The notes under the pieces were generated by a model. The model saw only the letters and a program-made list of their open reading frames with translations. It made no database searches and was not told the DNA's origin. The position numbers and the translations under genes are program-made. A stretch of 62,706 bases of DNA, the filler included. It is 4 parts of 4 records of this genome, joined end to end, with 100 filler letters (N's around TTAATTAATTAA, not from the genome) between each part and the next. Parts side by side here need not be neighbours in the genome. Positions count along the whole stretch, not along the records: positions 1 to 14,461 come from DRR723986_11667; 3 more parts are not named here. One strand, written 5' to 3'. This document shows positions 1 to 57,163 of this stretch, piece after piece; within the stretch, counting starts at the first letter, position 1; each line of letters begins with the position of its first letter.

Positions 1-1
1 C

Positions 2-64
2 ATGCTCGACCCAAGCGACCCCTGGCCGGGCGGCTACAAGCTCAGCGACACCTGGGGTGCGTGA
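2..64 (+). CDS. 3' end of a proline racemase family protein (trans-3-hydroxy-L-proline dehydratase-like), 5'-truncated
   Basis: Manual translation gives MLDPSDPWPGGYKLSDTWGA*, matching the DPxDPxxxGY C-terminal motif of the proline racemase/hydroxyproline epimerase-dehydratase family; not in the ORF track. Confidence 0.7.
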   Translation: MLDPSDPWPGGYKLSDTWGA

Positions 65-335
65 TTGTCGGGCTGAGGTGACGTAGAGAATGACTGGTCT
101 TGTTGGGGTGTTTCCCTAGCGGGACTTGTCATAAAAATCGATATGGCTCTACTGGCAAGCTTCCTTACGGCATTCGTCTATAAGGAAAAACGTCAAGTAA
201 ACTGAATTCCTCAACTCCATTCCTCTAAAGCGAATTTTGGAGGAAAGGAAAAATTATCAGTATCGGCCGGTTAAGACTTGTGAGTGGTGCAGGAAAGCAT
301 TTTAGTAGCGCCAAGACCTGAATATTTGCGAACGC

Positions 336-1196
336 ATGATTATGGACAAATTGGCGAAAAGAGGCGTTTGCCTCATTGGTTGCGGTTTCATGGGCAAGGC
401 TCTGGTGGAAGCCTGGCTGGCAAAGGGAATGCCTGCCGGTTCCATCTACGTGCGCGATCCCCGACCGTCCGGCTGGCTGCAAAGCCAGGCGGGCGTCAAC
501 ATCAACGAGCCTTTCCCGGCGTCTCCGGCCGCGATTGTCATCGCCACTCGTCCGCAGATCGTGGAGAAGGTTCTGGCGCCGCTCGGCTCCTTCGGTGGTG
601 GCGAAACGGTGATCCTGTCGATTGCGGCCAGCAAACCGATTTCGGTGCTGGAAAAGCAATTCCCGGATGGAACGCCAATCATTCGCGCGATGCCCAACCT
701 GCCGGCAACGGTCGGCTCTGCTGTCTCGACCTTTGTTGCCAACGAGGCGCTGACTGCCAGTCAGAAGGTGGAAGCCCTCAAGCTGATTGCCGCCTTCGGC
801 TCTGTTGTTGAATTGCCGGACGAAGACCTGCTACCGGTGGTTACTGCCTTGTCCGGTGCGGGGCCTGCCTATGTGTTTGCCATGGCCGAGGCCTTTGCCG
901 CGGCAGGGGCACGCCTTGGTCTGCCGGAGGACCTTGCTCATGAGTTGGCCGTGCGTACAGTGGCTGGCGCCGGGCGCATGCTTGCGCAGCCGGACGCGGA
1001 TGCGACCGGGTTCCGCGTCGCCGTGACGTCCAAAGGCGGCACGACCGAAGCAGGCATGCTGGAGTTCATGGCTGACGAGAACGGCATTCAGGATCTCGCC
1101 CGCCGCACGGTTGAAGCCGCTGCCGAGCGCTGCAAGGAACTGTCCGGACTGAAACCCGCCGAGCAGCCCAGGACCCTGCGGCTCGTCAGGGACTAG
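336..1196 (+). CDS. proC: pyrroline-5-carboxylate reductase
   Basis: GCGFMG Rossmann motif, SIAA, RAMPN, TALSGAGPAY and VTSKGGTT signatures. Confidence 0.93.
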   Translation: MIMDKLAKRGVCLIGCGFMGKALVEAWLAKGMPAGSIYVRDPRPSGWLQSQAGVNINEPFPASPAAIVIATRPQIVEKVLAPLGSFGGGETVILSIAASKPISVLEKQFPDGTPIIRAMPNLPATVGSAVSTFVANEALTASQKVEALKLIAAFGSVVELPDEDLLPVVTALSGAGPAYVFAMAEAFAAAGARLGLPEDLAHELAVRTVAGAGRMLAQPDADATGFRVAVTSKGGTTEAGMLEFMADENGIQDLARRTVEAAAERCKELSGLKPAEQPRTLRLVRD

Positions 1197-1238
1197 CGGC
1201 GAGTTCGAGCAGAACCCACCTGGCTCTTCTACAGGTCT

Positions 1239-2675
1239 CTAGGCCTTCAGAACCGAGGCTATATCCGAGGTTTGCAGCCGTTGGTAAGCGGATTTGACTG
1301 TGCTGCCAAAGGCCGCTGATCCTGGCAGGTCGTCGCCGAAAACCTCCGAGAGCGACAGCATCCTGTCGACATACGCATTGCCGTCCGTTTCCTGCACAAT
1401 GGTGCCAATCCTTGCGGACAGGGGGTCGTTCAACGGCAACGAGACGCCCGTTCTTGAAACACCGCGGCAATAGAGCATCCATGCGGCAACGGCGAGTGCC
1501 GATAGCGGCCAGGGGCTGTTGTCCTTCAGATGTTGCCGGATTGGGGCCAGCAGCCGTTGCGGCAGTTTCTGGCTGCCGTCAGAAGCGATCTGGGTGGTCT
1601 TGTGATGAAGCGCGGTGTTTTCAAACCGGGCAATCAGGGCTTCGGCATAGGCCTTGATATCGACACCGTCCGGCACGGCCAGCGTCGGGGCCTGTTCGTT
1701 CAGCATCAGGGCGAGGGCTGCCTGCCGGAAGGCCGGATCGGCCATGCAGTCGGCAATCGTTTCCTTGTCTGCCAGCGCCCCAAGATAGGCGAGAAACGAA
1801 TGGCTGCCGTTCAGCATCCGAAGTTTCATGTCTTCAAACGGCGCCACATCTTCAACGACTTCAGCACCTGCCAGATGCCAGTCCGGACGTGGGCCGGCAA
1901 ACCGGTCTTCAATTACCCACTGACGGAAGGTCTCGCACAGGATACCGTTCCGGTCAGCGTGACCTAGTGCGTTCTCAAGCGTTGCGAACGAACTGTCGGT
2001 CATTGCCGGTGTGATGCGGTCGACCATGGAGCAGGGGAAAGTGCAATTGCCTTCGATCCATTCTGCCAACTCCGGGTTGAGCCGCGCGGCGAAATCCAGG
2101 ACCGCACGGCGGCACAGCTCGCCGTTGGCGGGAAGATTGTCGCACGACAGGATCGTCAAACCGGCGAGACCGGCTGCCTGCCGCCGCCTGAGGCCTTCCA
2201 CCAGCACGCCGATGGCCGTGGAAGGGGCATCTGGCGTTGCAAGGTCTCGCCGGATTCCGGCGTTGTCTTCATCCAGCCTGCCGTCCTTCAGGCAATACCC
2301 TTTCTCGGTGATTGTCAGTGTGATCACGGCGAGATCCGGATCGGCGATCCGGTTCGGCAAGGCGTCGACGCCATCACGCTTGGGGTGAACCGTCGCACAG
2401 ACTGCGCCGACCTGGCACAACGAGAGGTCGTCACCGGACATCTCGCCGACAGTGAAAAGTCCGTCCGCCTCGTCAAGACCGGTGAGTTCGTCCGCACCGG
2501 AGTTGAGCCGGGCAACTGCGACACCCCAGTCGCTTTTCGTTCGGCGTAGCATCTCGTCGTGAAACACCAGAACATGCGCCTTGGCAAAGGCGCCGAACCC
2601 GATGTGCAGCAGTCGGATGCGCAGCTTTGTCCGGTCGTAGTCGACCGATTCAACCAAGTGACTGACGCTGCTCAT
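1239..2675 (-). CDS. uxuB: D-mannonate oxidoreductase / fructuronate reductase (mannitol dehydrogenase family)
   Basis: HIGFGAF, TITEKGY, SCDN, FPCSMVDRITP, KLRMLNGSH and DGSQKLPQR motifs; start moved to ATG 2675, which overlaps the GH31 stop (ATGA). Confidence 0.88.
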   Translation of the reverse strand: MSSVSHLVESVDYDRTKLRIRLLHIGFGAFAKAHVLVFHDEMLRRTKSDWGVAVARLNSGADELTGLDEADGLFTVGEMSGDDLSLCQVGAVCATVHPKRDGVDALPNRIADPDLAVITLTITEKGYCLKDGRLDEDNAGIRRDLATPDAPSTAIGVLVEGLRRRQAAGLAGLTILSCDNLPANGELCRRAVLDFAARLNPELAEWIEGNCTFPCSMVDRITPAMTDSSFATLENALGHADRNGILCETFRQWVIEDRFAGPRPDWHLAGAEVVEDVAPFEDMKLRMLNGSHSFLAYLGALADKETIADCMADPAFRQAALALMLNEQAPTLAVPDGVDIKAYAEALIARFENTALHHKTTQIASDGSQKLPQRLLAPIRQHLKDNSPWPLSALAVAAWMLYCRGVSRTGVSLPLNDPLSARIGTIVQETDGNAYVDRMLSLSEVFGDDLPGSAAFGSTVKSAYQRLQTSDIASVLKA

Positions 2676-5062
2676 GACTGGCTCACCGTGAAGTCGATTG
2701 TTTCGCCCGTTCTCCGCTCGGTCCCGTTGACGGCCAAGGTGCCGGCACCGGCCAGCCAAAGGGTGACCTTGTCGAAAGCGGGTTGCCAGTTGCCGGATCT
2801 CTGCCAATCCAGATGGACTGTTTCACCTGTTCGGGAGAGGCAAAGCCGGGTCAAACAGCTCTCGCCAGCCAGTGCGTATACCGTGTCACCGTCATCGTCA
2901 TAAAACTGCGAGTGCCTGTCCGGTGTTCCTTCCGGCTGTGGGTAGATACGCCACGTGCGCAAGGTGTCGGAAGACGGTGTCGACCTCAGGTTTTCGGCTG
3001 CCATCGGCAGCACCGTACCGCCTCGAACGAACAGCGGAATGGTATCAAGAGCCACCGGAACGTCGATCATCTGGCCGCCTTCATGCCAGTTGCTGCCGTC
3101 AAAGGCCCACCAGCCTTCTTCGTTGGCAGGCAGCGTGACCCGCCGCGACGTTGCGCCTTCCTCGACCACTGTCGCGACCAGAAGATCCCGGCCCAGCAGG
3201 AAGTCGAATTCAGCCTCCCGGCAGGCAGGGTCGTTCGGATAATCCAGGAACAGAGGCCGCAGCATCGGCTCGCCTTCGGTCACGGCACGGTGCAGCAGGC
3301 CGTAAAGATAAGGGATCAGCTGAGCCCGGAACTTCAGCGCGTTGCGTACGAGCGGCGTTATTTCCGGATACATCCAGGCTTCGTTGGCGGTGCCGTCGTC
3401 GTTCCAGGAATGGATCGTGAAACGCGGATGGAAAATGCCGTTCTGTACCCAGCGCAGGAACAGCTCCGGCTCCGGCCGCGGGCCGGCAAAGCCGCCGACA
3501 TCGTGGCCGATGTTGTAGAAGCCGGAGAGGCTGAGGCCGAGGCCCATCGGAATGTTCCAGCGCAGCGTGTCCCAGCTGGTGAAATTGTCGCCTGTCCAGG
3601 TCTGGGCATAGCGTTGCGTGCCGGGGCAGGCGCAGCGGGAAATCAGGTAGGGCCGCTTTTGGGGCTGATCGGCGACCTGCGCTTCATAGGACGCGCGCGT
3701 CATCAACTGGCTGTGCAGCGGCCGGATCAGATTAACCGGGATCGGCTTGCCGAAACCGGCGCAGACGGCCTCATCGTCCCATACTTCATATTCGTTGTTG
3801 TCGTTCCAGGTGCAGGCAATGCCTTTGGAAAAGAGCTTTTCCTTCAGGTTTTGTTGCCACCAGGCGACAGTGTCCGCGTTGGTGAAATCAAGGTGGGAGC
3901 CGTAACCGTCCCAGAACGGCGATTGCTCGGGTGCCCCGGTTTCGCTGTCACGAATGAACAGACCGGCCTCCGCGACCTCCCCGAACATCGGGTGGTCGTC
4001 CAGCAGCACCGGCTTGATATTGGCGATGAGGTTGATGCCGGCCTCGGCATAGGCCCGGGTCATGGTCTCGACATCGGGGAAGCGGTCGGTGTTCCAATGG
4101 AACACGTAGCGCTTGCCCTTGATGGCTGTATAGCCCGACGACATCTGGAAACTGTCGCATGGCATGTCTTCTTCCGACAGCTTGCCAAGGAACTCCATCA
4201 GCCGTTCCTGTGCATTTTCGGAATCGGTATAGGCCATGGTCGAGCCGGAATACCCAAGCCCCCACCGCGGCATGAAGGCGGTGCCGCCTGTCAGCCCGTG
4301 ATGCTGCTTGACGATATCCAGAACGCTCGGTGCCCAGCTGAAGTAATAGTCAAGGTCACCATCGGCAGCGCGGAAGGCGCGGAAAGGCAGGTGGTAGTTG
4401 TCTTTCTCGTTGCCGAGGTCGAACCAGCAGGGAGCCAGCGTGTCGTAGTAGAGCCCGACTGCGCCGAGCCGGCCCTTGTCGGTGATGGTGAAGGGAATGT
4501 GCTTGTAGAGCGGGTCTGTGGTTTGCGCGTCGTAGCCCATGGCATCGAGGTTGCGCATCTCGAAGCGCCTGCCGGTGCGCTCCAGGCCACCGGCCTTTTC
4601 GCCGAGACCGTAGTATCGCTCATCCGGGTTTCGCCGCATGAAATGATGATTGCGATGGTCGCGACGCCCGATCATGTAGGCGTCCTGGGTCCGGTCGCGG
4701 GCGATCTCCTGCCAGGGTTCGCCGGCAGCAGGCCGGCTTTCCCAGACGAAGGCAAGCGGGGTATTGATGGTCAGGCGCAGGTTTTCCGTTTCCAGGACAA
4801 GCCTGCCGTCCTGCTCTTCCAGCATGAAGTCGGGGCAGGAAAAGCCTGCGAGGTCGTCCCGCGTACGGCCGTCGAACGGCACGTCGCCTTCCGGTGCGAT
4901 GGCCCAGGTCCGGTCCAGACGATAGGTCCCGTCCTTCAGCAGAACAACACGGATGAGCGCATTTTCGAGAACCTTGACCACCAGGCGGTGCCGGTTCTCG
5001 ACTTCAAGTGCGATCCCGGCGCTGGAGCGGCCCAGGTAACGCCAGTTTATGAGGGCTTTCAT
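2672..5062 (-). CDS. glycoside hydrolase family 31 (alpha-glycosidase)
   Basis: YGLGEK, DPLYKHIPF, nucleophile WNDNNE, acid/base WTGDN, GHDVGGFAG; start taken at ATG 5062 just after dctM. Confidence 0.9.
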   Translation of the reverse strand: MKALINWRYLGRSSAGIALEVENRHRLVVKVLENALIRVVLLKDGTYRLDRTWAIAPEGDVPFDGRTRDDLAGFSCPDFMLEEQDGRLVLETENLRLTINTPLAFVWESRPAAGEPWQEIARDRTQDAYMIGRRDHRNHHFMRRNPDERYYGLGEKAGGLERTGRRFEMRNLDAMGYDAQTTDPLYKHIPFTITDKGRLGAVGLYYDTLAPCWFDLGNEKDNYHLPFRAFRAADGDLDYYFSWAPSVLDIVKQHHGLTGGTAFMPRWGLGYSGSTMAYTDSENAQERLMEFLGKLSEEDMPCDSFQMSSGYTAIKGKRYVFHWNTDRFPDVETMTRAYAEAGINLIANIKPVLLDDHPMFGEVAEAGLFIRDSETGAPEQSPFWDGYGSHLDFTNADTVAWWQQNLKEKLFSKGIACTWNDNNEYEVWDDEAVCAGFGKPIPVNLIRPLHSQLMTRASYEAQVADQPQKRPYLISRCACPGTQRYAQTWTGDNFTSWDTLRWNIPMGLGLSLSGFYNIGHDVGGFAGPRPEPELFLRWVQNGIFHPRFTIHSWNDDGTANEAWMYPEITPLVRNALKFRAQLIPYLYGLLHRAVTEGEPMLRPLFLDYPNDPACREAEFDFLLGRDLLVATVVEEGATSRRVTLPANEEGWWAFDGSNWHEGGQMIDVPVALDTIPLFVRGGTVLPMAAENLRSTPSSDTLRTWRIYPQPEGTPDRHSQFYDDDGDTVYALAGESCLTRLCLSRTGETVHLDWQRSGNWQPAFDKVTLWLAGAGTLAVNGTERRTGETIDFTVSQS

Positions 5063-5070
5063 GACAGATC

Positions 5071-6372
5071 CTAGTAGCCGAGGAGAACGCGCGGCAGGAA
5101 CAGGCTGAGGGCAGGTACGTAAGTGACCAGCAGCAGGAGAGCGACCAGAACCGCGTAGAAGCCGAGCATGGGTCTGAGTACCTGGCCGATCTTCACCCCG
5201 CCGACCGAGCAGCCGACAAAGAGTGCCGACCCCACTGGCGGTGTACAGATGCCGATACACAGGTTGAAGGTCATGACGACGCCGAAATGCACCGGGTCCA
5301 TGCCGAGATCTTCCACCACCGGCAGGAAGATGGGGGTGAAGATCAGCAATGCGGGCGTCATGTCCATGAAGGTGCCGACCACAAGCAGCGCCAGGTTGAT
5401 GATCAGCAGCAGGACGAGCGGATTTTCAGAAAGGCTCAGCAGCGTATCGGAGATCGAATAGGGGATATCCGCAAAGGCCATCGCTTTCGACATGGCGATG
5501 GAACAGCCGATCATCAGCAGCACGATGGACGTTGTCACCGCGCTTTCCAGGATGATGCCTGGAAGTTCGCGCGGCGAGATTTCCCTGTACCAGATCACGC
5601 CCAGGAAGAGCGTATAGACAACAGCAACGGCTGAAGCTTCGGTTGCGGTGAAGATGCCGCCGATGATGCCGCCCATGACGATCACGATCAGGCCAAGCGG
5701 CAGCATGGCGTCCAGCGTCTTGGCGATAACTTCCTGGCCACTGGGCCGTTCGGCAACCGGATATCCCCTGCGCTTGGCAATGATGCCGGCGACAACCATC
5801 AAGCTGAGCCCCATCAGGATGCCCGGAATGTATCCGGCAACGAACAGGGCCGCGATGGAGGTGCCGTTGGTAATCAGCGAATAGACGATGAAGGTTGCGC
5901 TCGGCGGGATCAAAAGGCCTGTCGGGCAGGAGGCGATGTTGACCGCCGCGCTGAACGCCGGATCGTAGCCTTCCTTCTTCTGAAGCGGAGACATCACGCC
6001 GCCGACAGCGGCGGCCGAGGCAACGGCGGAGCCCGAGATGGAGCCGAACATCATGTTGGCGATGACGTTGCAGTGGGCAAGCGCGCCGGGCAGGCGGCCG
6101 GCCAGAACCTTGGCGAACTCGATCAGGCGCATGGCGATGCCGCCCCGGTTCATGATGTTGCCCGCCAGAATGAAGAACGGAATGGCCAGCAGGGTGAAGC
6201 TGTCGAGACCGGAGGCGACCTGCTGCGCGACGATATAGACCGACTGGTCGAACGACATGAACAGCAGGAAAGTGGCGAAAGCTGCAAGACCGATGGCGAA
6301 GGCGATCGGTACGCCCAGGATCATCAGAAAGGCGAATGTCCCGAACAGGACGAGGACAGATTGGATATCCAT
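5071..6372 (-). CDS. TRAP transporter large permease (DctM)
   Basis: Highly hydrophobic; LLAIPFFILAG, FGSISGSAVA, LIPPS, TPPVG motifs. Confidence 0.95.
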   Translation of the reverse strand: MDIQSVLVLFGTFAFLMILGVPIAFAIGLAAFATFLLFMSFDQSVYIVAQQVASGLDSFTLLAIPFFILAGNIMNRGGIAMRLIEFAKVLAGRLPGALAHCNVIANMMFGSISGSAVASAAAVGGVMSPLQKKEGYDPAFSAAVNIASCPTGLLIPPSATFIVYSLITNGTSIAALFVAGYIPGILMGLSLMVVAGIIAKRRGYPVAERPSGQEVIAKTLDAMLPLGLIVIVMGGIIGGIFTATEASAVAVVYTLFLGVIWYREISPRELPGIILESAVTTSIVLLMIGCSIAMSKAMAFADIPYSISDTLLSLSENPLVLLLIINLALLVVGTFMDMTPALLIFTPIFLPVVEDLGMDPVHFGVVMTFNLCIGICTPPVGSALFVGCSVGGVKIGQVLRPMLGFYAVLVALLLLVTYVPALSLFLPRVLLGY

Positions 6373-6397
6373 GAAGTTACTCGTTCCCGGTCAGGTT

Positions 6398-6922
6398 TCA
6401 GTCCAGAGGGCCGCCGACGCTGGCGGTGCCTTCCTGCTCGTTCGGGCCGCGGCCAGTGCGAAAGAGGTCGGCCAGAAATGTCAGGCAGTAGTAGAGAATG
6501 CAGAGCCCGGAGAACGGGATCGCGATATAGACGAGGCCCATGGGCAGGCGTAGCGCCGGGGATACCTGTTGGGTTTCCAGCGTCCGGCTGACCAGGTCGA
6601 GCCCGCCGTAGACCATCACGACCCCTGCAAAGAGTGCGATGGCGGCAATGATGCCGACATTGACAAGAAGGCGCAGGATGCCGGTGGTGATGACGGGCAG
6701 CAGGTCGATGGCAAGGTGTCGTCGCTGGCCGAAGGTGTAAGCCCCGCCCAGCAGAGCAACCCAGATGAACAGGAAACGGGCCATTTCATCTGTCACCGTG
6801 CTCGGGCTTTGCAGCACGTAGCGCGAGACGACCTGCCAGACGACACAGGCAACCAGGACGGCGAAGGCGATGGTGATGACGAGACGCAGGACCATGTCCA
6901 CGCCTCTGGTGATGACTGTCAC
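6398..6922 (-). CDS. TRAP transporter small permease (DctQ)
   Basis: QVVSRY, DEMARFLFIW, HLAID; GTG 6922 preceded by a GGGAGG RBS. Confidence 0.92.
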   Translation of the reverse strand: MTVITRGVDMVLRLVITIAFAVLVACVVWQVVSRYVLQSPSTVTDEMARFLFIWVALLGGAYTFGQRRHLAIDLLPVITTGILRLLVNVGIIAAIALFAGVVMVYGGLDLVSRTLETQQVSPALRLPMGLVYIAIPFSGLCILYYCLTFLADLFRTGRGPNEQEGTASVGGPLD

Positions 6923-7008
6923 GATATTCCTCCCGCGCAGGCCTCGTTCTTGCCGCGGCAACAGGCGCGGCGTGGGCTCCGACACTTTAAGACATGCGTC
7001 AGGAAATT

Positions 7009-7026
7009 AAATTGGTCAACCAATTT
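7009..7026. promoter_or_regulatory. UxuR/ExuR-type (FadR/GntR) operator palindrome
   Basis: AAATTGGT-CA-ACCAATTT, identical to the hexuronate repressor consensus AAATTGGTnnACCAATTT, lying between the divergent dctQ and dctP. Confidence 0.85.
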
Positions 7027-7037
7027 TCCAAAAAAGG

Positions 7038-7069
7038 TTGACTGATTTTGAAAATTGGACGAACAATTC
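7038..7069 (+). promoter_or_regulatory. putative sigma70 promoter of the dctP-uidA-regulator-uxuA operon, overlapped by a weaker second operator
   Basis: TTGACT at 7038-7043; degenerate operator AAATTGGACGAACAATTC at 7052-7069 covering the -10 region. Confidence 0.55.
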
Positions 7070-7169
7070 CTCATCCGCGGCGGTCTGGCCTTGCAAGTCC
7101 CGCGGCCAACCGATCCGTTCCGGCACGGAACGCAAGTCCTGCGGCCAAGGCTGCAATTGGGAGGAAATC

Positions 7170-8150
7170 ATGTCGAAATTCGTTAAGCTGGCGGCTGTTC
7201 TTGCCGCGGGCGTCGTCGCTCTGGGTTCTGCCGCCAGCGCCAAGACGCTGCGCCTCAACCACAACAACCCGGAAGACCATCCGCTGCACAAGTCGATGCA
7301 GTTCATGGCCGAGCGCGTTGAAGAGCTGACAGACGGTGATCTGAAAATCCGCATCTATGCCAATGCCCAGCTTGGCACCCAGCGTGAATCCATGGAGCTG
7401 ATGCAGAACGGTTCCCTGGACATGGCCCGTTCCAACGCATCCGAGCTGGAGGCCTTCGAGGAATCCTACGGTGCGCTCAACCTGCCCTACATCTTCGTCA
7501 GTGCCGACCACTACTACGACGTTCTGACCAATGACATCGGTGCGGACATTCTTGCCTCGTCCGAGGACAAGGGCTTCATCGGCCTTGCCTATTACATCGA
7601 GGGCGCACGTTCCTTCTACGCCAACAAGGCGATCCATTCCCCGGCCGACCTGAAAGGCATGAAGATCCGCGTTCAGCCGAGCCCGTCCGCCATTCGCATG
7701 GTTGAGCTGCTCGGTGCCAACCCGACCCCGATTGCCTGGGGCGAGCTTTACAGCGCCCTGCAGCAGGGTGTTGTCGATGGCGCTGAAAACAACCCGATCG
7801 CGCTTACGTCCGCCCGTCACGGCGAGGTTTCCAAGTTCTATTCCGACGACGGCCACACCATGATCCCGTCCGTCGTGATGATTTCCACCAGCTCCTGGAA
7901 CGATCTGACCGACGAGCAGAAGGAAGCCATGCGCACGGCCGCACGTGAATCCATGGATTTCCACCGCGAGCAGTGGGATGCCATGAGTGCGGAAGCGGTC
8001 GAGACCGCGAAGAGCGAACTCGGCGTGGAATTCGTCGAAGTGGAAAAGGGCCCGTTCATCGAAGCGGTCCTGCCGATGCATGAGGAAGCGGCGGCCAAGT
8101 CTCCGGTCGTTGCCGACCTGATCAAGCGCATCAAGGCAGCTGCGCAATAA
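7170..8150 (+). CDS. TRAP solute-binding protein (DctP family)
   Basis: Signal peptide ending AASA, NAQLG, DLKGMKIRVQ, ELYSALQQGVVDGAENN; ATG 7170 with GGAGG RBS. Confidence 0.95.
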   Translation: MSKFVKLAAVLAAGVVALGSAASAKTLRLNHNNPEDHPLHKSMQFMAERVEELTDGDLKIRIYANAQLGTQRESMELMQNGSLDMARSNASELEAFEESYGALNLPYIFVSADHYYDVLTNDIGADILASSEDKGFIGLAYYIEGARSFYANKAIHSPADLKGMKIRVQPSPSAIRMVELLGANPTPIAWGELYSALQQGVVDGAENNPIALTSARHGEVSKFYSDDGHTMIPSVVMISTSSWNDLTDEQKEAMRTAARESMDFHREQWDAMSAEAVETAKSELGVEFVEVEKGPFIEAVLPMHEEAAAKSPVVADLIKRIKAAAQ

Positions 8151-8190
8151 CATCTGAAAACACCTGAAAGTCCCGCCGGAGACCTGACCG

Positions 8191-10011
8191 ATGCTCGAAC
8201 GCTCCCATCTCGCCGACAACGCCTTGCAGGCGCTGCATGACGAAGACTATGACGTGCCCTTCAACACGCAGTCCTTGTGTCATGACGGCCTGATCTTCAT
8301 GGGTGGGCGGGCATCGGAAAGCCTTGATGGCGACTGGACTTTCTGTGTCGATCTGCTCGACACCGGCCTCCGGCAGAAATGGTTTGCCATGCTGCCGGAG
8401 GCGCCGGAAAACCGCACTGAACCCTGGGACTATGATCCCTACATGGGGGAAACGGTGCCGGTTCCATCCAACTGGGCGATGATGAAGGAGAAGTGGTACT
8501 TCTTCGAAGGCAGCGCCTGGTACACGCGGGCTCTCGACATCGAGACGGTGGACAGTTCCAAGCGCCAGTTTCTGAGGTTCGGTGCCGCGAGCTACGACTG
8601 CAAGATCTTCCTGAACGGCGAGTTCCTTGGCAACCACTACGGTGCCTCGACACCTTTCTGCGTCGAGCTGACGGGCAAACTGAAGACCGGCCGCAACTGG
8701 ATCATGGCCTGCGTCAACAACATCCGGACACGCGACCGGGTGCCGATGCGCAATACCGACTGGTTCAACTACGGTGGTCTCTATCGGGAAGTGGCATTCT
8801 TCGAAACACCGAAGACCCTTATCAAGGACTTCTTTCTCTACCTTGTGCCGGACGGCACATATTCCACGCTGCGGGTCGAAGTCACCGTCGACGGTGTGCC
8901 GGCAGGTGCTGTGACGCTTTCCATTCCCGGGCTTGGCATTGAAAAAGAAATAGTTCTGGATGCGGACGGCAAGGGAACGCTCGACATTTCAGCCCGGCCG
9001 CAACTATGGAGCCCGGAAGCACCCGTCCTTTATGATGTCAGCGTCACCTGCGGCGAAGACCGTGTGTGCGACCGGATCGGTTTTCGCCAGATCGAGCGCC
9101 GCGGCACGGATATTCTGCTGAACGGGGCACCACTGTTCCTTCGGGGGATTTCCGTCCACGAGGACGATGCACTCCTCGGCAAGGTGACAAATGAGGATGA
9201 TTTGCGCCGCCGCTTTGCCCATGCGCGCGAACTGGGCTGCAACTATCTGCGTCTTGCACATTATCCGCATCACGAACGGGCGGCTCAGATTGCTGATGAA
9301 CTCGGCTTTTTGCTATGGGAGGAAATCCCGGTCTACTGGGCCATCGATTTTGCCAATCCGGCGACCTATCGCGATGCTGAAAACCAGTTGTCGGAACTGA
9401 TCAAGCGGGATCGCAACCGGGCAAGTGTCGTCATCTGGTCCGTCGGAAACGAGAATCCTGACACGGATGCCCGGCTTACCTTCATGAAAGGCCTTGCCGA
9501 AACCTGCAAACGTCTCGACCCGACCCGGCTGACTTCCGCAGCCTGTCTGGTGAACCATGCCCGGAACCGGATCGAGGACAGGCTCGCGGCGCATATCGAT
9601 ATCATCGGCCTCAACGAATATTACGGCTGGTATGAAGAGAATTTCGATGACCTTGCCGCGATCGGGGAGAACTCGGACCCGGACCGTCCGGTGGTGATTT
9701 CGGAAACGGGCGCTGACGGCGTTATAGGTGAGAAAGGTCCGAAGTCTGGCCTCTTCAGCGAAGATTACATGGCCGAAGTCTACACCAGGCAGATCGCAAC
9801 TCTGCGCGAACTTGGATATATCAAAGGCATGTCGCCGTGGATACTTTACGATTTTCGTGTTGAACGGCGCCAAAATATTTTCCAGAACGGCTATAACCAC
9901 AAGGGGCTGATTGCCGCCGACAAGAAAACCAAGAAAAAAGCATTCCATATCCTGGCCGACTATTATCGCGAGATTGCAGCTGCCGGGGAGGGTGCGAGGA
10001 AGGCCTCATGA
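8191..10011 (+). CDS. uidA: beta-glucuronidase (GH2)
   Basis: DWFNYGGLYR, RLAHYPH, acid/base WSVGNE, NEYYGWY, nucleophile ISETG and the GUS-specific NxKG motif (NHKG). Confidence 0.88.
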   Translation: MLERSHLADNALQALHDEDYDVPFNTQSLCHDGLIFMGGRASESLDGDWTFCVDLLDTGLRQKWFAMLPEAPENRTEPWDYDPYMGETVPVPSNWAMMKEKWYFFEGSAWYTRALDIETVDSSKRQFLRFGAASYDCKIFLNGEFLGNHYGASTPFCVELTGKLKTGRNWIMACVNNIRTRDRVPMRNTDWFNYGGLYREVAFFETPKTLIKDFFLYLVPDGTYSTLRVEVTVDGVPAGAVTLSIPGLGIEKEIVLDADGKGTLDISARPQLWSPEAPVLYDVSVTCGEDRVCDRIGFRQIERRGTDILLNGAPLFLRGISVHEDDALLGKVTNEDDLRRRFAHARELGCNYLRLAHYPHHERAAQIADELGFLLWEEIPVYWAIDFANPATYRDAENQLSELIKRDRNRASVVIWSVGNENPDTDARLTFMKGLAETCKRLDPTRLTSAACLVNHARNRIEDRLAAHIDIIGLNEYYGWYEENFDDLAAIGENSDPDRPVVISETGADGVIGEKGPKSGLFSEDYMAEVYTRQIATLRELGYIKGMSPWILYDFRVERRQNIFQNGYNHKGLIAADKKTKKKAFHILADYYREIAAAGEGARKAS

Positions 10012-10748
10012 CCAGCGATCCTGCAAAGCGCCGGTACCAGGAAATTGCCGAACTTCTCGCAAGGCGTATCGAGGAGGGGGGCTACAGGCCCGGCGACAAG
10101 TTTCCGACCGAGCGACAGATTTCGGTCGAACTCGGTATCAGCCGCTCCCTGGTGCGTGAAGCTTTTATCGTTCTGGAAATCGAAGGCTATCTGGACGTGC
10201 GCAAGGGCTCCGGCAGCTATGTGGCGGCCGGTGAAAAGATTTCGCTGCATATTCCGAAGGCAGACTACGGACCCTTCGAATTGCTGCAGGCCCGCCAACT
10301 CTTGGAAAGCAGCATTGCCGGCTTTGCCGCCACCACGATCACCAAAAGCGACATCATTCATCTGCGGGAGACGCTCGATCTGGAGCGCAGGGCGATCGAA
10401 CACGGTGAGGAAGATTACACCGCCGACCGGCAGTTCCACCGGCAGATCGCCGAAGCAACCCAGAACAGTGTTCTGGTGGACCAGGTGGAAGACCTCTGGA
10501 ACAAGCGTGAAAACAGTTCCATGTGGGCTCGGCTGCATGACCGCATCTTCGATCTCAGCTACCGGGCCAAATGGCTGGATGATCACGCCGAAATTCTGGA
10601 GGCGTTGCGCCACCGTAACTCCGAGAAGGCGCGCCTTGCCATGTGGCAGCACTTGGAAAACGTTCGCCTGACTCTGCTTGAGCTTTCGGACGTCGGCGAT
10701 CCTGATTTCGACGGTTACCTTTATACCCCGGCACAGGCCGCGCCCTGA
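10008..10748 (+). CDS. GntR/FadR family transcriptional regulator (UxuR/ExuR-like)
   Basis: N-terminal wHTH (PTERQIS...SRSLVREA...RKGSG); FCD domain with GPFELLQARQLLES as in ExuR/UxuR. Confidence 0.9.
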   Translation: MTSDPAKRRYQEIAELLARRIEEGGYRPGDKFPTERQISVELGISRSLVREAFIVLEIEGYLDVRKGSGSYVAAGEKISLHIPKADYGPFELLQARQLLESSIAGFAATTITKSDIIHLRETLDLERRAIEHGEEDYTADRQFHRQIAEATQNSVLVDQVEDLWNKRENSSMWARLHDRIFDLSYRAKWLDDHAEILEALRHRNSEKARLAMWQHLENVRLTLLELSDVGDPDFDGYLYTPAQAAP

Positions 10749-10829
10749 ACGCCGGCGAATGATGTGCGCCATACACAAGACCCCAAACACAAAACGCTGC
10801 AGCGATAACAACAAGAAAGACTTCAGGCG

Positions 10830-12011
10830 ATGATCGAAAGCTGGCGCTGGTTCGGACCGCAGGACCCCATCTCCCTGAGGGATATCCGCCAGACAGGTGC
10901 ACGCGGCATCGTCACCGCCCTGCATGATATTCCCAACGGCACCTTCTGGCCGGAAGAGGAAATCGCGTCCCGCCGTCGCATGATCGAGGCAGCCGGCCTG
11001 GAATGGGTCGTCACCGAGAGCATCCCGGTGCATGAGGACATCAAGACCGGGGCGCCCGGATGGGAAAAGTGGGCGGTAAACTGGGCGGAGACGGTTCGCG
11101 CCCTGGCGCGCCAGGGCATCAGGACGATCTGCTACAATTTCATGCCCGTGCTGGACTGGACCCGGACGGATCTCGACTACGAACTGGAAGACGGTGCAAC
11201 CGCCCTGCGGTTCGAGTTCGCGGCTTATGCCGCGTTCGATCTGTTCATTCTGCAGCGGGAGGGCGCTGAGGCGGACTATGATGCTGCCGATATTGCGCTT
11301 GCCGAGGAACGCTTTGCCCGGATGTCCATCGAGGAGCGGGACAGGCTGACCGCCAATATCATTGCAGGATTGCCCGGTTCGGAAGAAAGCTACACGCTGG
11401 AGACATTCCGGGACCGCCTCGCGTCTTATCGCGGTATCGGCCGGGAAGAGCTTTTCCGGAACCTTCAGAACTTCCTTGAAATCGTCGTGCCGGCCGCCGA
11501 GGAGGAGGGGGCTGTCTTGGCCATCCATCCGGATGACCCGCCGAGGTCTCTCTTCGGTTTGCCGCGAATTGTCGGGTCGATCGGTGATCTGCAGCGAATT
11601 GCCGGCATGAACCCGTCAATGGCAAACGGCTTTACCGTCTGCTCCGGATCGCTTGGTGTCAGCGCCGGCAACAATATTCCCGAAATCATCGATGCATTGG
11701 GTGAGCGGATCCATTTTGCCCATCTGAGGGCAACTAGGCGCGAGCAGGATCCCCGCAGTTTCCGCGAAGATGCGCATCTTGAGGGCGACGTCGATATGGT
11801 CGCCATCATTCGTGCACTGCGGCGCATGGAACGACAAACGGGTAAGTGGATCCCGATGCGGCCGGATCATGGGCATCGCATGTTGAACGATCTCAGTGGA
11901 ACATCGACGCCCGGGTATCCGGCGATCGGCCGGTTGCGGGGACTGGCGGAGCTGCGCGGTGTGACCCGGGCGGTTGATATTCTGGACACAGTCGAAGCGG
12001 CGGCTGAATAG
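10830..12011 (+). CDS. uxuA: mannonate dehydratase
   Basis: WRWFGP, ESIPVHEDIK, CYNFMPVLDWTRT, HPDDPP, MRPDHGH. Confidence 0.97.
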   Translation: MIESWRWFGPQDPISLRDIRQTGARGIVTALHDIPNGTFWPEEEIASRRRMIEAAGLEWVVTESIPVHEDIKTGAPGWEKWAVNWAETVRALARQGIRTICYNFMPVLDWTRTDLDYELEDGATALRFEFAAYAAFDLFILQREGAEADYDAADIALAEERFARMSIEERDRLTANIIAGLPGSEESYTLETFRDRLASYRGIGREELFRNLQNFLEIVVPAAEEEGAVLAIHPDDPPRSLFGLPRIVGSIGDLQRIAGMNPSMANGFTVCSGSLGVSAGNNIPEIIDALGERIHFAHLRATRREQDPRSFREDAHLEGDVDMVAIIRALRRMERQTGKWIPMRPDHGHRMLNDLSGTSTPGYPAIGRLRGLAELRGVTRAVDILDTVEAAAE

Positions 12012-12128
12012 GTCATTCGGGCAAGGCAATAACCTTGACCGGGCGCGGTATCCGATTACATCCATCTGCTGAGAAACTTCACGGCAATGGCGATGGCACC
12101 GGTCATGCCCGAGATCCCGGAGACCTGA

Positions 12129-12527
12129 ATGGAAAAGAATGTCGATTACCTTGTAGAGGACGGGCACGATGTCATCCTCATAGAAGGACTGAAAGTCGCG
12201 ACGCAGATCGGCATTCTGGACAGCGAGAAAAACCGGACACAAACCGTCTGCTTCGATATCGAAATGCAGACTGTTACCGGCTATCGCCGGATCGTGCGCG
12301 AAACGGGTGCGTTTGTTTCCTATGCCGACGCGGTCGAATTCATTCTGCAAAAGGCAGCCTCCGGCGGTCATATCGACCTGGTCGAGGATTGGGCTGAAGC
12401 CGTTGCGGATTTCGTTTTGACGAATGAGCTGGTTGAAGGCGTCAGCGTGAAGGTCACCAAGCCGGACATCTTTGAGGAAGCCGCGGGCGTCGGCATTCGC
12501 ATCAAGCGCCGCCGGCAGTCCCGTTGA
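12129..12527 (+). CDS. folB: dihydroneopterin aldolase (FolB family)
   Basis: IGILDSE, VSY, LVE and VTKP keep the Glu/Tyr/Glu/Lys active-site set; ends in GVGIRIKR. Confidence 0.8.
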   Translation: MEKNVDYLVEDGHDVILIEGLKVATQIGILDSEKNRTQTVCFDIEMQTVTGYRRIVRETGAFVSYADAVEFILQKAASGGHIDLVEDWAEAVADFVLTNELVEGVSVKVTKPDIFEEAAGVGIRIKRRRQSR

Positions 12528-12626
12528 CCTTGCCCTCTCGCCGCATTTTCCTATCTGCCCTGAAACCTGCCTGATCCCGCCCGGCATTTCCGGGCAAGAG
12601 GTTCGACACCGGGAGCCCCGCCTCAC

Positions 12627-13511
12627 ATGATTTCCGCCGATCGCCTGCTTCCTCTCTGGCTCAAATATCGCGATGCTCTCGAAGCACCGATCCGAACCTT
12701 CGAATTTGAAAAGTTTGGCCGGCGGTTCGAGGACCGCACCTATCAGATGGGCGTCCTGAACCTGTCACCGGACAGCACCTATCGCGAAACGGTTTGCCAT
12801 ACCTTCGAAGCGGCGCTTTATCGTGGTCGGCGCATGACGCTGGAGGGGGCGGCGATGGTTGACATCGGCGCGGAGTCGACCGGCGAGACTGCGGACATCG
12901 TTGCGGCCGAGCGGCAGATCGACCGCATGCGCCCGGTCGTAAAGGCTCTTGCCGACGAAGGCATTCTTGTTTCCGTTGAAACCTATCATCCGGAAGTGGG
13001 CGTCGCCCTACTGGAGGCCGGAGCAGGAGTGGTCAATCTGACGGGACGCGTTGACGACCCGGCCTTCTACGAGTCGATTGCGAAGCATCAGGCCGGTATC
13101 GTCCTGTGTTACACACCGGGCAAGAATGCCCGTTCCGATGATTACCTGCCGCCGGCTGAAGATATCTTCGATCACCAGCTCACATTCTTCCGCGAGAGGG
13201 TCCATCTGGCCACAGAAGCCGGGATCGAGCGGCTGTGGGTTGACCCCGGCTTCGGCTTTGCGCTGCACTTGCCGGACGGGCCGGACCGGATCCGGTATCA
13301 GACCGACAGTATTCTCCAGTCGTTCCGCCTGCGGGAACTCGGTTGGCCGGTGACCGTGCAGTTGACCGGGGCAGTGTATCTGTTCCGTGATGAAGTTCGG
13401 GTGGCGCAGACCAGCGCGGCAACTCTGGCCGTCATGTCGAGAGCAAACCTGGTGCGCAGCCATGAAGTGCCACGCGTGCAGCCGGTCCTGAACCTGCAGG
13501 ATTTCGCCTGA
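12627..13511 (+). CDS. dihydropteroate synthase-like pterin-binding TIM-barrel protein with a non-canonical active site
   Basis: MGVLNLSPDS, DIGAEST, VDPGFGF and RSHEV align to FolP motifs, but FSDGG, STRPG and SRK are missing. Confidence 0.8.
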   Translation: MISADRLLPLWLKYRDALEAPIRTFEFEKFGRRFEDRTYQMGVLNLSPDSTYRETVCHTFEAALYRGRRMTLEGAAMVDIGAESTGETADIVAAERQIDRMRPVVKALADEGILVSVETYHPEVGVALLEAGAGVVNLTGRVDDPAFYESIAKHQAGIVLCYTPGKNARSDDYLPPAEDIFDHQLTFFRERVHLATEAGIERLWVDPGFGFALHLPDGPDRIRYQTDSILQSFRLRELGWPVTVQLTGAVYLFRDEVRVAQTSAATLAVMSRANLVRSHEVPRVQPVLNLQDFA

Positions 13512-13586
13512 AGAGTTGGCCGCTTCCCAGAGTCTGTTTCTTGAGGGGCAAGCCGAGACAAACCCGAGCCAACCGGAGGAGTGCAT

Positions 13587-14342
13587 ATGGTAACCGACAG
13601 GATCGCACTGGTGACAGGGGCCGGCAAACGGCTCGGCAAGGCCATCGCCAGGGGGCTGGCGAATGAAGGTTATGCCATGGGCCTCCATTACAATTCTTCT
13701 GCCGAGGGTGCGCAGGAGCTTCATGACGAGATTGTCGCCGAAGGCGGCAAGGCCGCACTCTTGCAGAAAGACCTGAGCCGGCCGGAGACGGCCGGTGGCC
13801 TGATCGAGGACGCGGCCGCTGCACTGGGTGGACCGGTCGAGGTGCTGGTGAATTCCGCATCCGCGTTCAATACAGACAGCTTGTCTGACCTGACGATCGA
13901 TACCTGGCAGTTCCTGATGAACGTCAATGCGGCCGCGCCGGTATTCCTGATGCAGGCATTCGCCAACCAGGATCCCTTGCCGGAAGGCGGCGCGATCGTG
14001 AACATGCTCGACACCCAGATGCTGTCGGCGTCCCCGGAACGGTTCAGCTATTTTTGCGGAAAGTTCGCGCTCGACGGGGCGACCCGTCTGGCTGCCTACG
14101 ATCTGGGACCCAGGGGCATTCGCGTGAATGCGGTTGCTCCGGGCCTGATCCTGCCGAGCGACCAGACCCAGGAAAACTTTGACGCTAGGCAGAAGTTGAC
14201 GCCAATGGGGCCGGGCCTCGGGCCTGATGATGTGGTTGATGCGGTGATCTATCTGGTGGGGGCCAAACAGGTGACCGGACACACGCTGGTGGTGGATGCC
14301 GGGCAGCGGCTGATGGGCTTCGGAAACGCGCCAATCGGATGA
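13587..14342 (+). CDS. SDR oxidoreductase, pteridine reductase (FolM/PTR1-like)
   Basis: TGAGKRLG (with the Arg typical of pteridine reductases), HYNSS, LVNSAS, YxxxK (YFCGK), RVNAVAPG; ATG after GGAGGA. Confidence 0.8.
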   Translation: MVTDRIALVTGAGKRLGKAIARGLANEGYAMGLHYNSSAEGAQELHDEIVAEGGKAALLQKDLSRPETAGGLIEDAAAALGGPVEVLVNSASAFNTDSLSDLTIDTWQFLMNVNAAAPVFLMQAFANQDPLPEGGAIVNMLDTQMLSASPERFSYFCGKFALDGATRLAAYDLGPRGIRVNAVAPGLILPSDQTQENFDARQKLTPMGPGLGPDDVVDAVIYLVGAKQVTGHTLVVDAGQRLMGFGNAPIG

Positions 14343-14419
14343 AATTGAGGAAATCCTTGGGATTTCATGGTTAGCGAATGGTTAATATCCACTGCCACGA
14401 AAGTGGGGCGAATTTTCTT

Positions 14420-14461
14420 TCAAAAAAAATCAAAACCGGTGTTGACGGGTTGGGTTGGTCT
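14420..14461 (+). promoter_or_regulatory. probable rRNA operon promoter (UP element and -35), cut by the contig end
   Basis: A-tracts at 14422-14435 then TTGACG at 14442-14447; assemblies commonly break at rrn repeats; no rRNA sequence is present. Confidence 0.55.
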
Positions 14462-14561
14462 NNNNNNNNNNNNNNNNNNNNNNNNNNNNNNNNNNNNNNN
14501 NNNNNTTAATTAATTAANNNNNNNNNNNNNNNNNNNNNNNNNNNNNNNNNNNNNNNNNNNN
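14462..14561. other. artificial contig spacer
   Basis: N44 + TTAATTAATTAA (stops in all six frames) + N44. Confidence 0.99.
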
Positions 14562-45067: not shown

Positions 45068-45167
45068 NNNNNNNNNNNNNNNNNNNNNNNNNNNNNNNNN
45101 NNNNNNNNNNNTTAATTAATTAANNNNNNNNNNNNNNNNNNNNNNNNNNNNNNNNNNNNNNNNNNNN
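45068..45167. other. artificial contig spacer
   Basis: N44-TTAATTAATTAA-N44. Confidence 0.99.
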
Positions 45168-57063: not shown

Positions 57064-57163
57064 NNNNNNNNNNNNNNNNNNNNNNNNNNNNNNNNNNNNN
57101 NNNNNNNTTAATTAATTAANNNNNNNNNNNNNNNNNNNNNNNNNNNNNNNNNNNNNNNNNNNN
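57064..57163. other. artificial contig spacer
   Basis: N44-TTAATTAATTAA-N44. Confidence 0.99.

Follow-up and report, generated by a model that had tools for sequence, protein, structure and literature searches.

In the DNA of a marine Roseibium bacterium, the middle gene of a three-gene pterin cluster encodes a dihydropteroate synthase (DHPS, FolP) paralogue from a distinct family. This family evolves under purifying selection, occurs together with canonical FolP, and has FolB, HPPK and dihydropterin-type reductases as recurrent neighbors. Our preferred reading, to which we assign a probability of roughly 0.45, is that the paralogue uses DHPPP, that its acceptor for the pterin-methyl group is not pABA, and that the neighboring short-chain reductase (SDR) then reduces the product. 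The window, meaning the whole stretch of 62,706 nucleotides that was analyzed, consists of four contigs joined by N linkers, with the trio located at the end of contig 1 (1-14461). An earlier note on this DNA had described three co-oriented pterin genes unaccompanied by folK, folE or folC, and we indeed find three ORFs in one orientation at positions 12129-14342 and none of those three other genes within the 14.4-kb contig.

Table 1. Coordinates of the trio and adjoining features, counted along the window.
Feature	Position	Strand	Description
FolB'	12129..12527	+	divergent dihydroneopterin aldolase, 132 aa; PF02152 65.1 bits, TIGR00526 60.2 bits
FolB'-paralogue spacer	12528..12626	+	99 nt
DHPS paralogue ('DHPSL')	12627..13511	+	294 aa; TIM barrel, remodelled pABA/loop region, N-terminal extension
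FolM/PTR1-type short-chain reductase (SDR)	13581..14342	+	253 aa; likelier start ATG 13587 behind GGAGG
Artificial contig junction N44-TTAATTAATTAA-N44	14462..14561	.	end of Roseibium-like contig; not biology

In complete Roseibium genomes (L029, L007), an rRNA operon lies 3' of the SDR gene, and thus nothing has been lost downstream of the trio at the contig end. No riboswitch or other RNA element around the trio, the spacer at 12528-12626 included, matches Rfam at E<=1, and scans for promoters and terminators in the same surroundings give chance-level results. One promoter-like site lies at 12603-12631, and such sites do not exceed the count in shuffled sequence. RNA-library contigs span the trio and both spacers in four of four runs; two of them are 10-14 kb long and may be DNA carry-over, and so this coverage proves neither transcription nor an operon transcript.

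The proposal that the middle protein departs from ordinary FolP is borne out, in that it belongs to a separate and conserved paralogue clade whose pABA/loop region has been rebuilt. It matches Pterin_bind (PF00809) with 117.6 bits over profile positions 1-178 of 244 only, and its score of 130.7 bits against the DHPS equivalog TIGR01496 falls under the 162.6 cut-off. Members of the paralogue family elsewhere score 112-131 bits with this model, versus 288-339 bits for intact canonical FolP proteins of the same genomes; the frameshifted canonical FolP of genome G005 reaches 164.5 bits on part of the model only. The PF00809 match, an AF2 model and Foldseek all place the paralogue in the Pterin_bind TIM-barrel fold. 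The model has a pLDDT of 93.2 and is confident in loop 1 as well (92-95 across residues 41-60), and its top Foldseek matches are all DHPS or Sul (TM 0.73-0.77). The extra N-terminal helix of the earlier note corresponds to approximately 38 additional residues, which are modelled as helices 4-13 and 15-19 followed by a hairpin. In a tree of the DHPS family made with FastTree only, the paralogue clade (42 rows) is split from canonical DHPS (82 rows) with a support of 100. For a third subclade, an Atlas hint suggests Actinomycetota as the taxon; the Actinomycetota clusters that the Atlas names may be either FolP2 or part of the paralogue family. The database name of the family is uniformly 'dihydropteroate synthase', and we found no paper on it.

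The paralogue also differs in the active site, which we read from HMMER alignments to solved DHPS structures and from alignment A1; every motif replacement previously listed for the middle protein holds in both. Loop 1 is NLSPDSTYRET versus NVTPDSFSDGG in DHPS, and loop 2 is ESTGET versus ESTRPG, such that TYRET and STGET stand where FSDGG and STRPG would be expected. Similarly, the paralogue has SVET for SVDT, VVN-LTG for INDV and a C-terminal RSHE for RVHD, and TVQLTGAVYL replaces the G-SRK segment, while VDPGFGF is retained. Loops 1 and 2 of DHPS, together with its Lys and Ser, bind PPi, Mg and pABA, and K221 also touches the pterin ring in both DHPS and Sul enzymes, according to the available portion of one study (PMC10328974).

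Residue counts over 82 canonical and 42 paralogue rows fall into two groups. One comprises residues common to both clades, namely N22 (82/82 canonical versus 42/42 paralogue), N115 (82/82 versus 41/42), D185 (82/82 versus 39/42), R255 (82/82 versus 38/42) and H257 (81/82 versus 33/42); the DPGxGF motif and F190 persist in 33 of the 42 paralogue rows. The other comprises residues that are lost entirely or for the most part: K221 (80/82 versus 0/42), D116 (82/82 versus 0/42), F28 (78/82 versus 0/42), R63 (70/82 versus 5/42) and P64 (75/82 versus 8/42). Position 96 is D in 80/82 canonical rows versus E in 40/42 paralogue rows. The window protein keeps N45, N137 and D206 as well as the C-terminal R-x-H (R277 and H279), and it has E118 for D96 and A249 for K221, leaving the canonical pterin pocket incomplete. 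Judged by these alignments, the predicted pterin and pyrophosphate residues are retained and those on the pABA side are replaced.

The paralogue is under strong purifying selection, with dN/dS values of 0.02-0.07, and it is the best conserved of the trio genes in 45 of 45 Roseibium-like loci. Motifs specific to the family are common to four phyla. At least 559 relatives occur in metagenomes, as counted by a scan that used the narrower alignment A3, with the 80 metagenome loci biased toward a Verrucomicrobia/Gammaproteobacteria-like subclade.

Both flanking proteins have recognizable relatives. FolB' exceeds the PF02152 cut-off of 31.8 bits, reaches only 23-26% identity with canonical FolB proteins from relatives, and shares with canonical FolBs (alignment A4) the invariant residues E33, Y65, E86 and K111, which we take to be catalytic; it qualifies as a FolB family member. 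The cluster copy is the sole FolB-family match in each of the two Roseibium genomes searched (G001, G002). The best profile match of the SDR is NF006597, at 246.6 bits (cut-off 281), and its score against the pteridine reductase model NF006598 is 155.5 bits (cut-off 288), both under threshold. The TGX3RXG cofactor signature, defined for FolM/PTR1-type reductases in the accessible part of PMC1971073, is present as TGAGKRLG at residue 12, and the catalytic YxxxK as YFCGK at residue 157. Among solved structures, 5tgd ('FolM alternative dihydrofolate reductase') is its closest relative, at 125 bits. In alphaproteobacterial genomes that carry the paralogue, this SDR is the single best NF006597-like protein, and relatives that lack the paralogue have a true NF006597 SDR scoring 350-379 bits.

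FolB, paralogue and SDR genes sit side by side in 45 of 46 genome loci of the Roseibium-like kind (the exception is L032), and thus the three genes co-occur well beyond this window in an arrangement that is not due to chance. The earlier note had named a failure to co-occur in other genomes as a refuting outcome, and its idea withstands that check. Three lineages associate the paralogue with pterin-branch genes and a dihydropterin-type reductase, with varying partners. In other alphaproteobacteria (L046, L051, L052, L054, L058), the cluster includes HPPK, which lies between FolB and the paralogue. Two of these loci (L046 and L052) have the order FolB-HPPK-paralogue-SDR with overlapping reading frames, HPPK being translationally coupled to the paralogue. 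Gammaproteobacterial loci are ordered MBL hydrolase-SDR-HPPK-paralogue-methyltransferase-FolB, a six-gene cluster that occupies 5817-10268 in L056, and G005, a member of this group, carries additional copies of FolB and HPPK, one of each, reserved for the paralogue cluster. The cyanobacterium Lyngbya has the order NUDIX-TmpR-paralogue next to HPPK and FolB, and its TmpR scores 377.6 bits against NF012208 (cut-off 325). Overall, three SDR subtypes annotated as dihydropterin or dihydrofolate reductases adjoin the paralogue. In 21 of 21 verrucomicrobial genome loci, the surroundings gave no match to HPPK, FolB, a related SDR or a methyltransferase, and no acceptor-making gene is conserved beside the paralogue. 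The methyltransferase found next to it in gammaproteobacterial and soil lineages is divergent and EgtD-like; the alphaproteobacteria G001 and G004 and the cyanobacterium G006 have true EgtD (350-397 bits), not this divergent form, and an EgtD search of G003 gave no match.

Comparisons among Roseibium genomes and other genomes with paralogue loci reveal that ordinary folate synthesis exists alongside the cluster. The separate canonical FolP whose presence the earlier note wished to see established is encoded in 10 of 11 genomes checked (the exception is one MAG), and FolA in five of five; therefore, the paralogue is not the housekeeping enzyme. In Roseibium, HPPK is encoded beside canonical folP. 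The earlier idea of a self-contained pathway that does without folK fails, because HPPK lies within the cluster elsewhere and because the FolB and HPPK of alphaproteobacterial clusters serve folate synthesis too. Specifically, 5/5 alphaproteobacterial genomes with the paralogue have no FolB besides the cluster copy, and 3/3 of those with HPPK in the cluster have no other HPPK, and so these enzymes also work in ordinary folate synthesis. This entanglement is unusual: the divergent cluster FolB, and elsewhere the cluster HPPK, stands alone, and relatives without the paralogue carry canonical versions in their place, which suggests replacement.

Given these observations, we infer that DHPPP is the substrate, that pABA is not the acceptor, and that the SDR acts on the product. 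The paralogue, which is predicted to be active, would bind 6-hydroxymethyl-7,8-dihydropterin pyrophosphate (DHPPP) supplied by FolB and HPPK and would ionize it as DHPS does. The pterin-6-ylmethyl group would then go to a nucleophile that is not p-aminobenzoate, after which the FolM/PTR1-type SDR would reduce the 7,8-dihydro product to its tetrahydro form. The non-pABA acceptor is deduced from the replaced residues. Even DHPPP binding is only predicted, since K221, a pterin-ring contact of DHPS and Sul in the part of PMC10328974 available, is lost and D96 is changed to E. Moreover, because the alphaproteobacterial FolB and HPPK neighbors are housekeeping copies, their position beside the paralogue may mean no more than membership in a folate operon. 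The verrucomicrobial loci with none of the partners, and the absence of a conserved acceptor-making neighbor, also count against this reading. A more speculative extension, which we hold tentatively and consider somewhat doubtful, is that the product is an undescribed 'pteroate analogue' whose dihydropterin 6-methylene is joined to a non-pABA nucleophile. The SDR would reduce this analogue, and in the gammaproteobacterial and soil lineages the neighboring EgtD-like methyltransferase would then methylate it. Such a compound might be a tetrahydropterin cofactor or signal of a new kind, drawing on the DHPPP pool that also feeds folate; its makers would be Alpha- and Gammaproteobacteria, Verrucomicrobia, cyanobacteria and at least one alga.

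Perhaps, instead, FolB and the SDR make up a route to tetrahydromonapterin or tetrahydroneopterin, comparable to FolX/FolM or PruA, and the barrel binds a pterin without alkyl transfer, acting in DHPPP hydrolysis or elimination, as a pterin carrier or sensor, or in MeTr-like methyl transfer. The standing of the SDR as the best NF006597-like protein where the paralogue is present fits this alternative, as does the prediction, in the portion of PMC1971073 available, that where FolM-like genes sit in pterin gene clusters, their role is to produce reduced, unconjugated pterins; a change of chemistry could likewise explain why K221 and D116 are gone. Nevertheless, we consider this route rather unlikely. 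The coupling of HPPK to the paralogue in L046 and L052 and its duplication for the paralogue in G005 indicate a pyrophosphate ester as the substrate, and the pyrophosphate-side residues N22, R255 and H257 are conserved. In addition, a search of 18 genomes for an aromatic amino-acid hydroxylase (Biopterin_H) gave no matches, such that the classic use of a cofactor of this type is missing. One paralogue (P0130) is fused to a pterin-4a-carbinolamine dehydratase (PCD) domain, a point in favor of the same route, but this fusion belongs to a single eukaryotic lineage and PCD adjoins canonical FolP as well (G003, G098). PCD occurs in 18/18 genomes with or without the paralogue and has no discriminating value. 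A hydroxylase-cofactor function was rejected on the hydroxylase count. A PruA-type operon was likewise set aside, given that Agrobacterium pruA adjoins neither folB nor a folP-like gene (PMC4488946).

It is unlikely that the paralogue duplicates DHPS in folate synthesis, with pABA or p-aminobenzoyl-glutamate as its acceptor, and that, with an SDR-type DHFR, it provides a bypass or folate-fragment salvage, possibly insensitive to antifolates. The order folB-folK-paralogue-SDR does resemble a folate operon, the partner SDRs are of alternative-DHFR types (5tgd FolM, TmpR NF012208), and DPGxGF and F190 are largely retained; extra conserved arginines, such as R53 (32/42), could also bind more carboxylates. 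However, the pABA-holding Lys and Ser are missing in 42/42 rows, as is F28, and R63 and P64 are mostly gone, whereas pABA-using Sul enzymes keep the Lys and Ser contacts in the section of PMC10328974 available. The subthreshold TIGR01496 score and the canonical FolP and FolA already present in these genomes argue in the same direction, and the methyltransferase partner would have no explanation.

In methanopterin synthesis, a DHPS homologue works with an arylamine acceptor that is not pABA. By that analogy only, the paralogue might belong to a tetrahydromethanopterin-type pathway with ribofuranosyl-aminobenzene phosphate as its acceptor, but this is extremely improbable, and the H4MPT pathway was rejected, because beta-RFAP synthase (TIGR00144) is found in 0 of 5 paralogue-bearing genomes while the control search matched 4 archaea. 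Finally, a decaying or non-functional folP duplicate, as the loss of several canonical catalytic residues might suggest, is refuted for practical purposes by the low dN/dS, the greater conservation of the paralogue than of its neighbors, the motifs common to four phyla and the abundance of metagenome relatives.

DHPS is the classic target of sulfa drugs and serves as a signature enzyme when folate synthesis is predicted from genome sequences. Labelling a widespread paralogue without the pABA site as 'dihydropteroate synthase' would be a systematic mis-annotation, and genomes would be credited too often with folate capacity or with sul/folP genes. If the paralogue does couple DHPPP to another acceptor, it would define a new branch of pterin metabolism and would give a function to the FolM-like reductases whose clustering with pterin-branch genes was noted in 2007 (PMC1971073, in the portion available).

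Among known systems, FolP (TIGR01496; PDB 6day, 3tyz, 1aj0) is the closest sequence relative of the paralogue (100.6 bits), sharing its TIM-barrel fold and the residues N22, N115, D185, R255 and H257. In contrast to FolP, to which it is 28-31% identical, the paralogue scores below the equivalog cut-off, lacks K221, D116, F28 and most instances of R63/P64, has E for D96, carries the N-terminal extension, and is six residues shorter in the segment after strand 7. The sulfonamide-resistant Sul1-4 enzymes are likewise divergent members of the DHPS family with comparable scores (Sul2 89.9 bits; 7s2k TM 0.77), but the paralogue has no specific kinship to them and lacks the Lys and Ser that contact pterin/pABA as they make dihydropteroate from pABA (PMC10328974, available part). 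Actinobacterial FolP2 (Rv1207, PDB 2vp8) is also a second folP copy, yet it is farther from the paralogue than canonical DHPS is (58.5 versus 100.6 bits) and, as far as the available part of its description goes, clusters with cell-wall genes rather than pterin genes. The trio SDR resembles FolM, PruA, PTR1 and TmpR in its TGX3RXG and YxxxK motifs and has FolM as its closest solved relative; it differs from FolM/PruA/PTR1 in its subthreshold NF006597 score, and from Agrobacterium PruA in adjoining both a folB and a folP-like gene.

The three co-oriented genes for a FolB, a DHPS-like protein (hereafter the paralogue) and an SDR that the earlier note had read from the sequence are all borne out. 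They lie at the end of contig 1 (positions 1-14461, GC content 0.60), whose proteins are 88-99% identical to those of Roseibium (Labrenzia/Stappia) genomes. The contig ends approximately 120 nt past the SDR gene, where an rRNA operon follows in complete Roseibium genomes, and so the unit comprises three genes here. The sugar-acid block 5' of the trio is unrelated to it and is syntenic with most Roseibium loci. GC content falls to 0.51-0.54 in the later contigs, which may therefore come from another organism or bin. The SDR carries the motifs YFCGK and TGAGKRLG, the latter matching TGX3RXG, which a passage of PMC1971073 gives as the signature of PTR1 and FolM. The best-matching solved structure for the SDR is 5tgd ('FolM alternative dihydrofolate reductase').

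Coordinates of the features discussed (window positions unless a locus or genome contig is named)
Feature	Position	Evidence or content
Linkers N44-TTAATTAATTAA-N44 joining four contigs into the 62.7-kb window	14462-14561; 45068-45167; 57064-57163	
Glucuronide/mannonate (sugar-acid) utilization block	336-12011	Mannitol-type dehydrogenase, GH31, TRAP DctPQM, GH2 beta-glucuronidase-like protein, UxuR/ExuR-type GntR regulator, UxuA
FolB	12129-12527	PF02152, 65.1 bits
DHPS-like paralogue	12627-13511	Pterin_bind, 117.6 bits, profile positions 1-178 of 244 only
SDR	13581-14342	Best NF006597, 246.6 (cut-off 281); next NF006598 'pteridine reductase'
Paralogue, MAG locus L032	L032 8001-8885	88% identical
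Divergent EgtD/EasF-like SAM methyltransferase	L056 8834-9892; L125 6259-7305 (-)	Methyltransf_33, only 27-71 bits
Fourth Pterin_bind protein, Roseibium	G001:C1 5455470-5456147; G002:C48 437831-438508	~318 aa, 97-99 bits
PCD (Pterin_4a) directly beside canonical FolP	G003:C4 195333-196619; G098:C5 58121-59298	

The paralogue represents a robust family of DHPS paralogues that is probably mis-annotated. It scores 130.7 bits against the DHPS equivalog TIGR01496, under the cut-off of 162.6. Scanning 1.84 billion representative proteins gave 41 matches at E<=1e-30; weaker matches formed an unbroken series of canonical DHPS. In a tree built with FastTree only, from 124 rows (full-length matches of 260-440 aa plus 13 translated loci), a branch with SH-like support of 100 separates 42 paralogue rows from 82 canonical rows. 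The AF2 model (pLDDT 93.2, pTM 0.92) is confident also in loop 1; its top structural matches are DHPS and Sul2 (TM 0.73-0.77), with no competing fold. At least 559 relatives were recovered in a metagenome scan, most from soil, peat and freshwater records. A full-text literature search, with subscription journals outside its scope, found no paper on the family; the SEED spreadsheet of PMC1971073 might list members.

HMMER alignments to solved DHPS, and likewise alignment A1, confirm each of the motif swaps and the N-terminal extension that the earlier note described. In the parts of PMC10328974 that bear on these sites, the DHPS reaction is SN1 via a pterin carbocation, pyrophosphate and Mg2+ are bound by loops 1 and 2, which also form the pABA site, and Sul1 and Sul2 hold the pterin by conserved Asn, Asp and Lys and pABA by Ser and Lys after strand 7. 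Read against these roles, the column counts indicate that the paralogue retains most of the pterin/pyrophosphate side, and that the pABA side has been replaced.

Residues at canonical DHPS sites in the 124-row alignment
Site	Canonical (n=82)	Paralogue (n=42)
N22	82/82	42/42
N115	82/82	41/42
D185	82/82	39/42
R255	82/82	38/42
H257	81/82	33/42
F190	77/82	33/42
K221	80/82	0/42
D116	82/82	0/42
F28	78/82	0/42
R63	70/82	5/42
P64	75/82	8/42
D96	D in 80/82	E in 40/42
Loop-1 Asp	D in 67/82	R in 32/42

A separate canonical FolP, the presence of which the earlier note had proposed to check, accompanies the paralogue in all but one of the 11 genomes checked, the exception being the MAG G007. Genomes with the canonical enzyme are two Roseibium, an Afifellaceae, a Hyphomicrobiaceae, a gammaproteobacterium, Lyngbya and five of six Verrucomicrobia. 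In the two Roseibium genomes it reaches 247-250 bits (PF00809), and elsewhere 288-339 bits (TIGR01496); the gammaproteobacterial copy is frameshifted (164.5 bits). FolA is found in 5/5 genomes. The distribution of the paralogue is patchy: 12 of 81 genomes in a family sample and 2 of 201 in an order sample, counts that include the query genomes (two and one, respectively). Besides FolP, MetH and the paralogue, Roseibium encodes a fourth Pterin_bind protein.

The order FolB-paralogue-SDR, whose conservation was also to be checked, holds in 45 of 46 Roseibium-like loci. The exception, L032, has neither FolB nor SDR beside the paralogue, which is flanked there by unrelated genes (PhyH-like dioxygenase, FMO-like, CMD and other SDR genes); a rearrangement or a mis-binned contig could account for this. 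Five more distant alphaproteobacterial loci (L046, L051, L052, L054, L058) have the order FolB-HPPK-paralogue-SDR, with overlapping reading frames in L046 and L052. Gammaproteobacterial loci L055-L057 (and fragments L103 and L104) have, in this order, an MBL-fold hydrolase, an SDR (TGX3RXG), HPPK, the paralogue, the EgtD/EasF-like methyltransferase and FolB. In Lyngbya, a NUDIX gene, a TmpR-type SDR (NF012208, 377.6, over the cut-off of 325), the paralogue and a thioredoxin-reductase-like flavoprotein are adjoined by HPPK and FolB on the opposite strand; TmpR itself has a history in Thermus. Thus, in three lineages, and with three different SDR subtypes, the paralogue became linked to pterin-branch genes and a dihydropterin-type reductase. 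In gammaproteobacterial loci, and in many from soil or peat metagenomes, the methyltransferase is an immediate neighbor of the paralogue. Among 80 metagenome loci biased to a Verrucomicrobia/Gammaproteobacteria-like subclade, it is 4-146 nt downstream in 38 (36 convergent, 2 co-directional). It adjoins the paralogue in none of 21 Verrucomicrobia genome loci, where no neighbor was informative, and is absent from the alphaproteobacterial genomes searched, two of which have a true EgtD instead.

The suggestion of a pathway without folK does not stand, given the HPPK inside the cluster in other alphaproteobacteria. The cluster FolB is the sole FolB in 5/5 alphaproteobacterial genomes with the paralogue, and the in-cluster HPPK the sole HPPK in 3/3 genomes having one there; in Roseibium the single HPPK adjoins canonical folP. 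Five relatives lacking the paralogue have canonical FolB (119-128 bits, versus 59-65 for the cluster FolB of two Roseibium genomes) and a true NF006597 SDR (350-379 versus 246-250 bits). Identity between the cluster FolB and those relatives' FolBs is only 23-26%, but it retains E33, Y65, E86 and K111, which we take to be the catalytic residues. So in these alphaproteobacteria the divergent FolB and SDR of the cluster take the place of their canonical counterparts, and the cluster is intertwined with folate synthesis. That Roseibium has only the divergent cluster versions suggests that an acquired cluster displaced the native genes. A second FolB and HPPK fully dedicated to the cluster are present only in the gammaproteobacterium G005, which gives the strongest hint that DHPPP feeds a parallel pathway. 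All the observations of the earlier note hold, and its interpretation is supported in part.

Our tentative reading, with a probability of roughly 45%, is that the paralogue would transfer the pterin-6-ylmethyl group from DHPPP to an acceptor other than pABA, that the adjoining SDR would reduce the 7,8-dihydro product, and that in some lineages this product may be methylated. An unlikely rival is a monapterin/neopterin route formed by FolB and the SDR, with the barrel protein carrying out other chemistry or only binding a pterin. Somewhat less probable still is a bypass using pABA or pABA-Glu, paired with an SDR-type DHFR. A methanopterin-type enzyme is highly improbable, with RFAP synthase in 0/5 genomes, and a decaying duplicate, equally improbable, is refuted by selection on the paralogue: dN/dS is 0.017-0.071 against seven Roseibium orthologues (dS saturated in several pairs), and it is the most conserved gene of the trio in 45/45 loci (median identities: paralogue 90%, SDR 82%, UxuA 78%, FolB 68%).

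A further lead is P0130 (413 aa; UniRef name, chlorarachniophyte Amorphochlora amoebiformis), a eukaryotic algal family member fused C-terminally to a pterin-4a-carbinolamine dehydratase (PCD) domain (PF01329, 40.4 bits). P0132 resembles a second eukaryote-style form, its N-terminus carrying a long extension. However, PCD is also found next to canonical FolP, in the alphaproteobacterial genomes G003 and G098. PCD occurs in 18/18 genomes tested and aromatic amino-acid hydroxylase in 0/18, which makes these 'orphan' PCDs.

As for known systems, passages of 10.1101/472472 concern the origins of sul genes rather than the paralogue clade. In the relevant portion of PMC4488946, pruA is unlinked to folB or folP. 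In passages of PMC1971073, actinobacterial FolP2 is the only case for which two copies of folP are mentioned, and folM-like genes are described as clustering with pterin genes.
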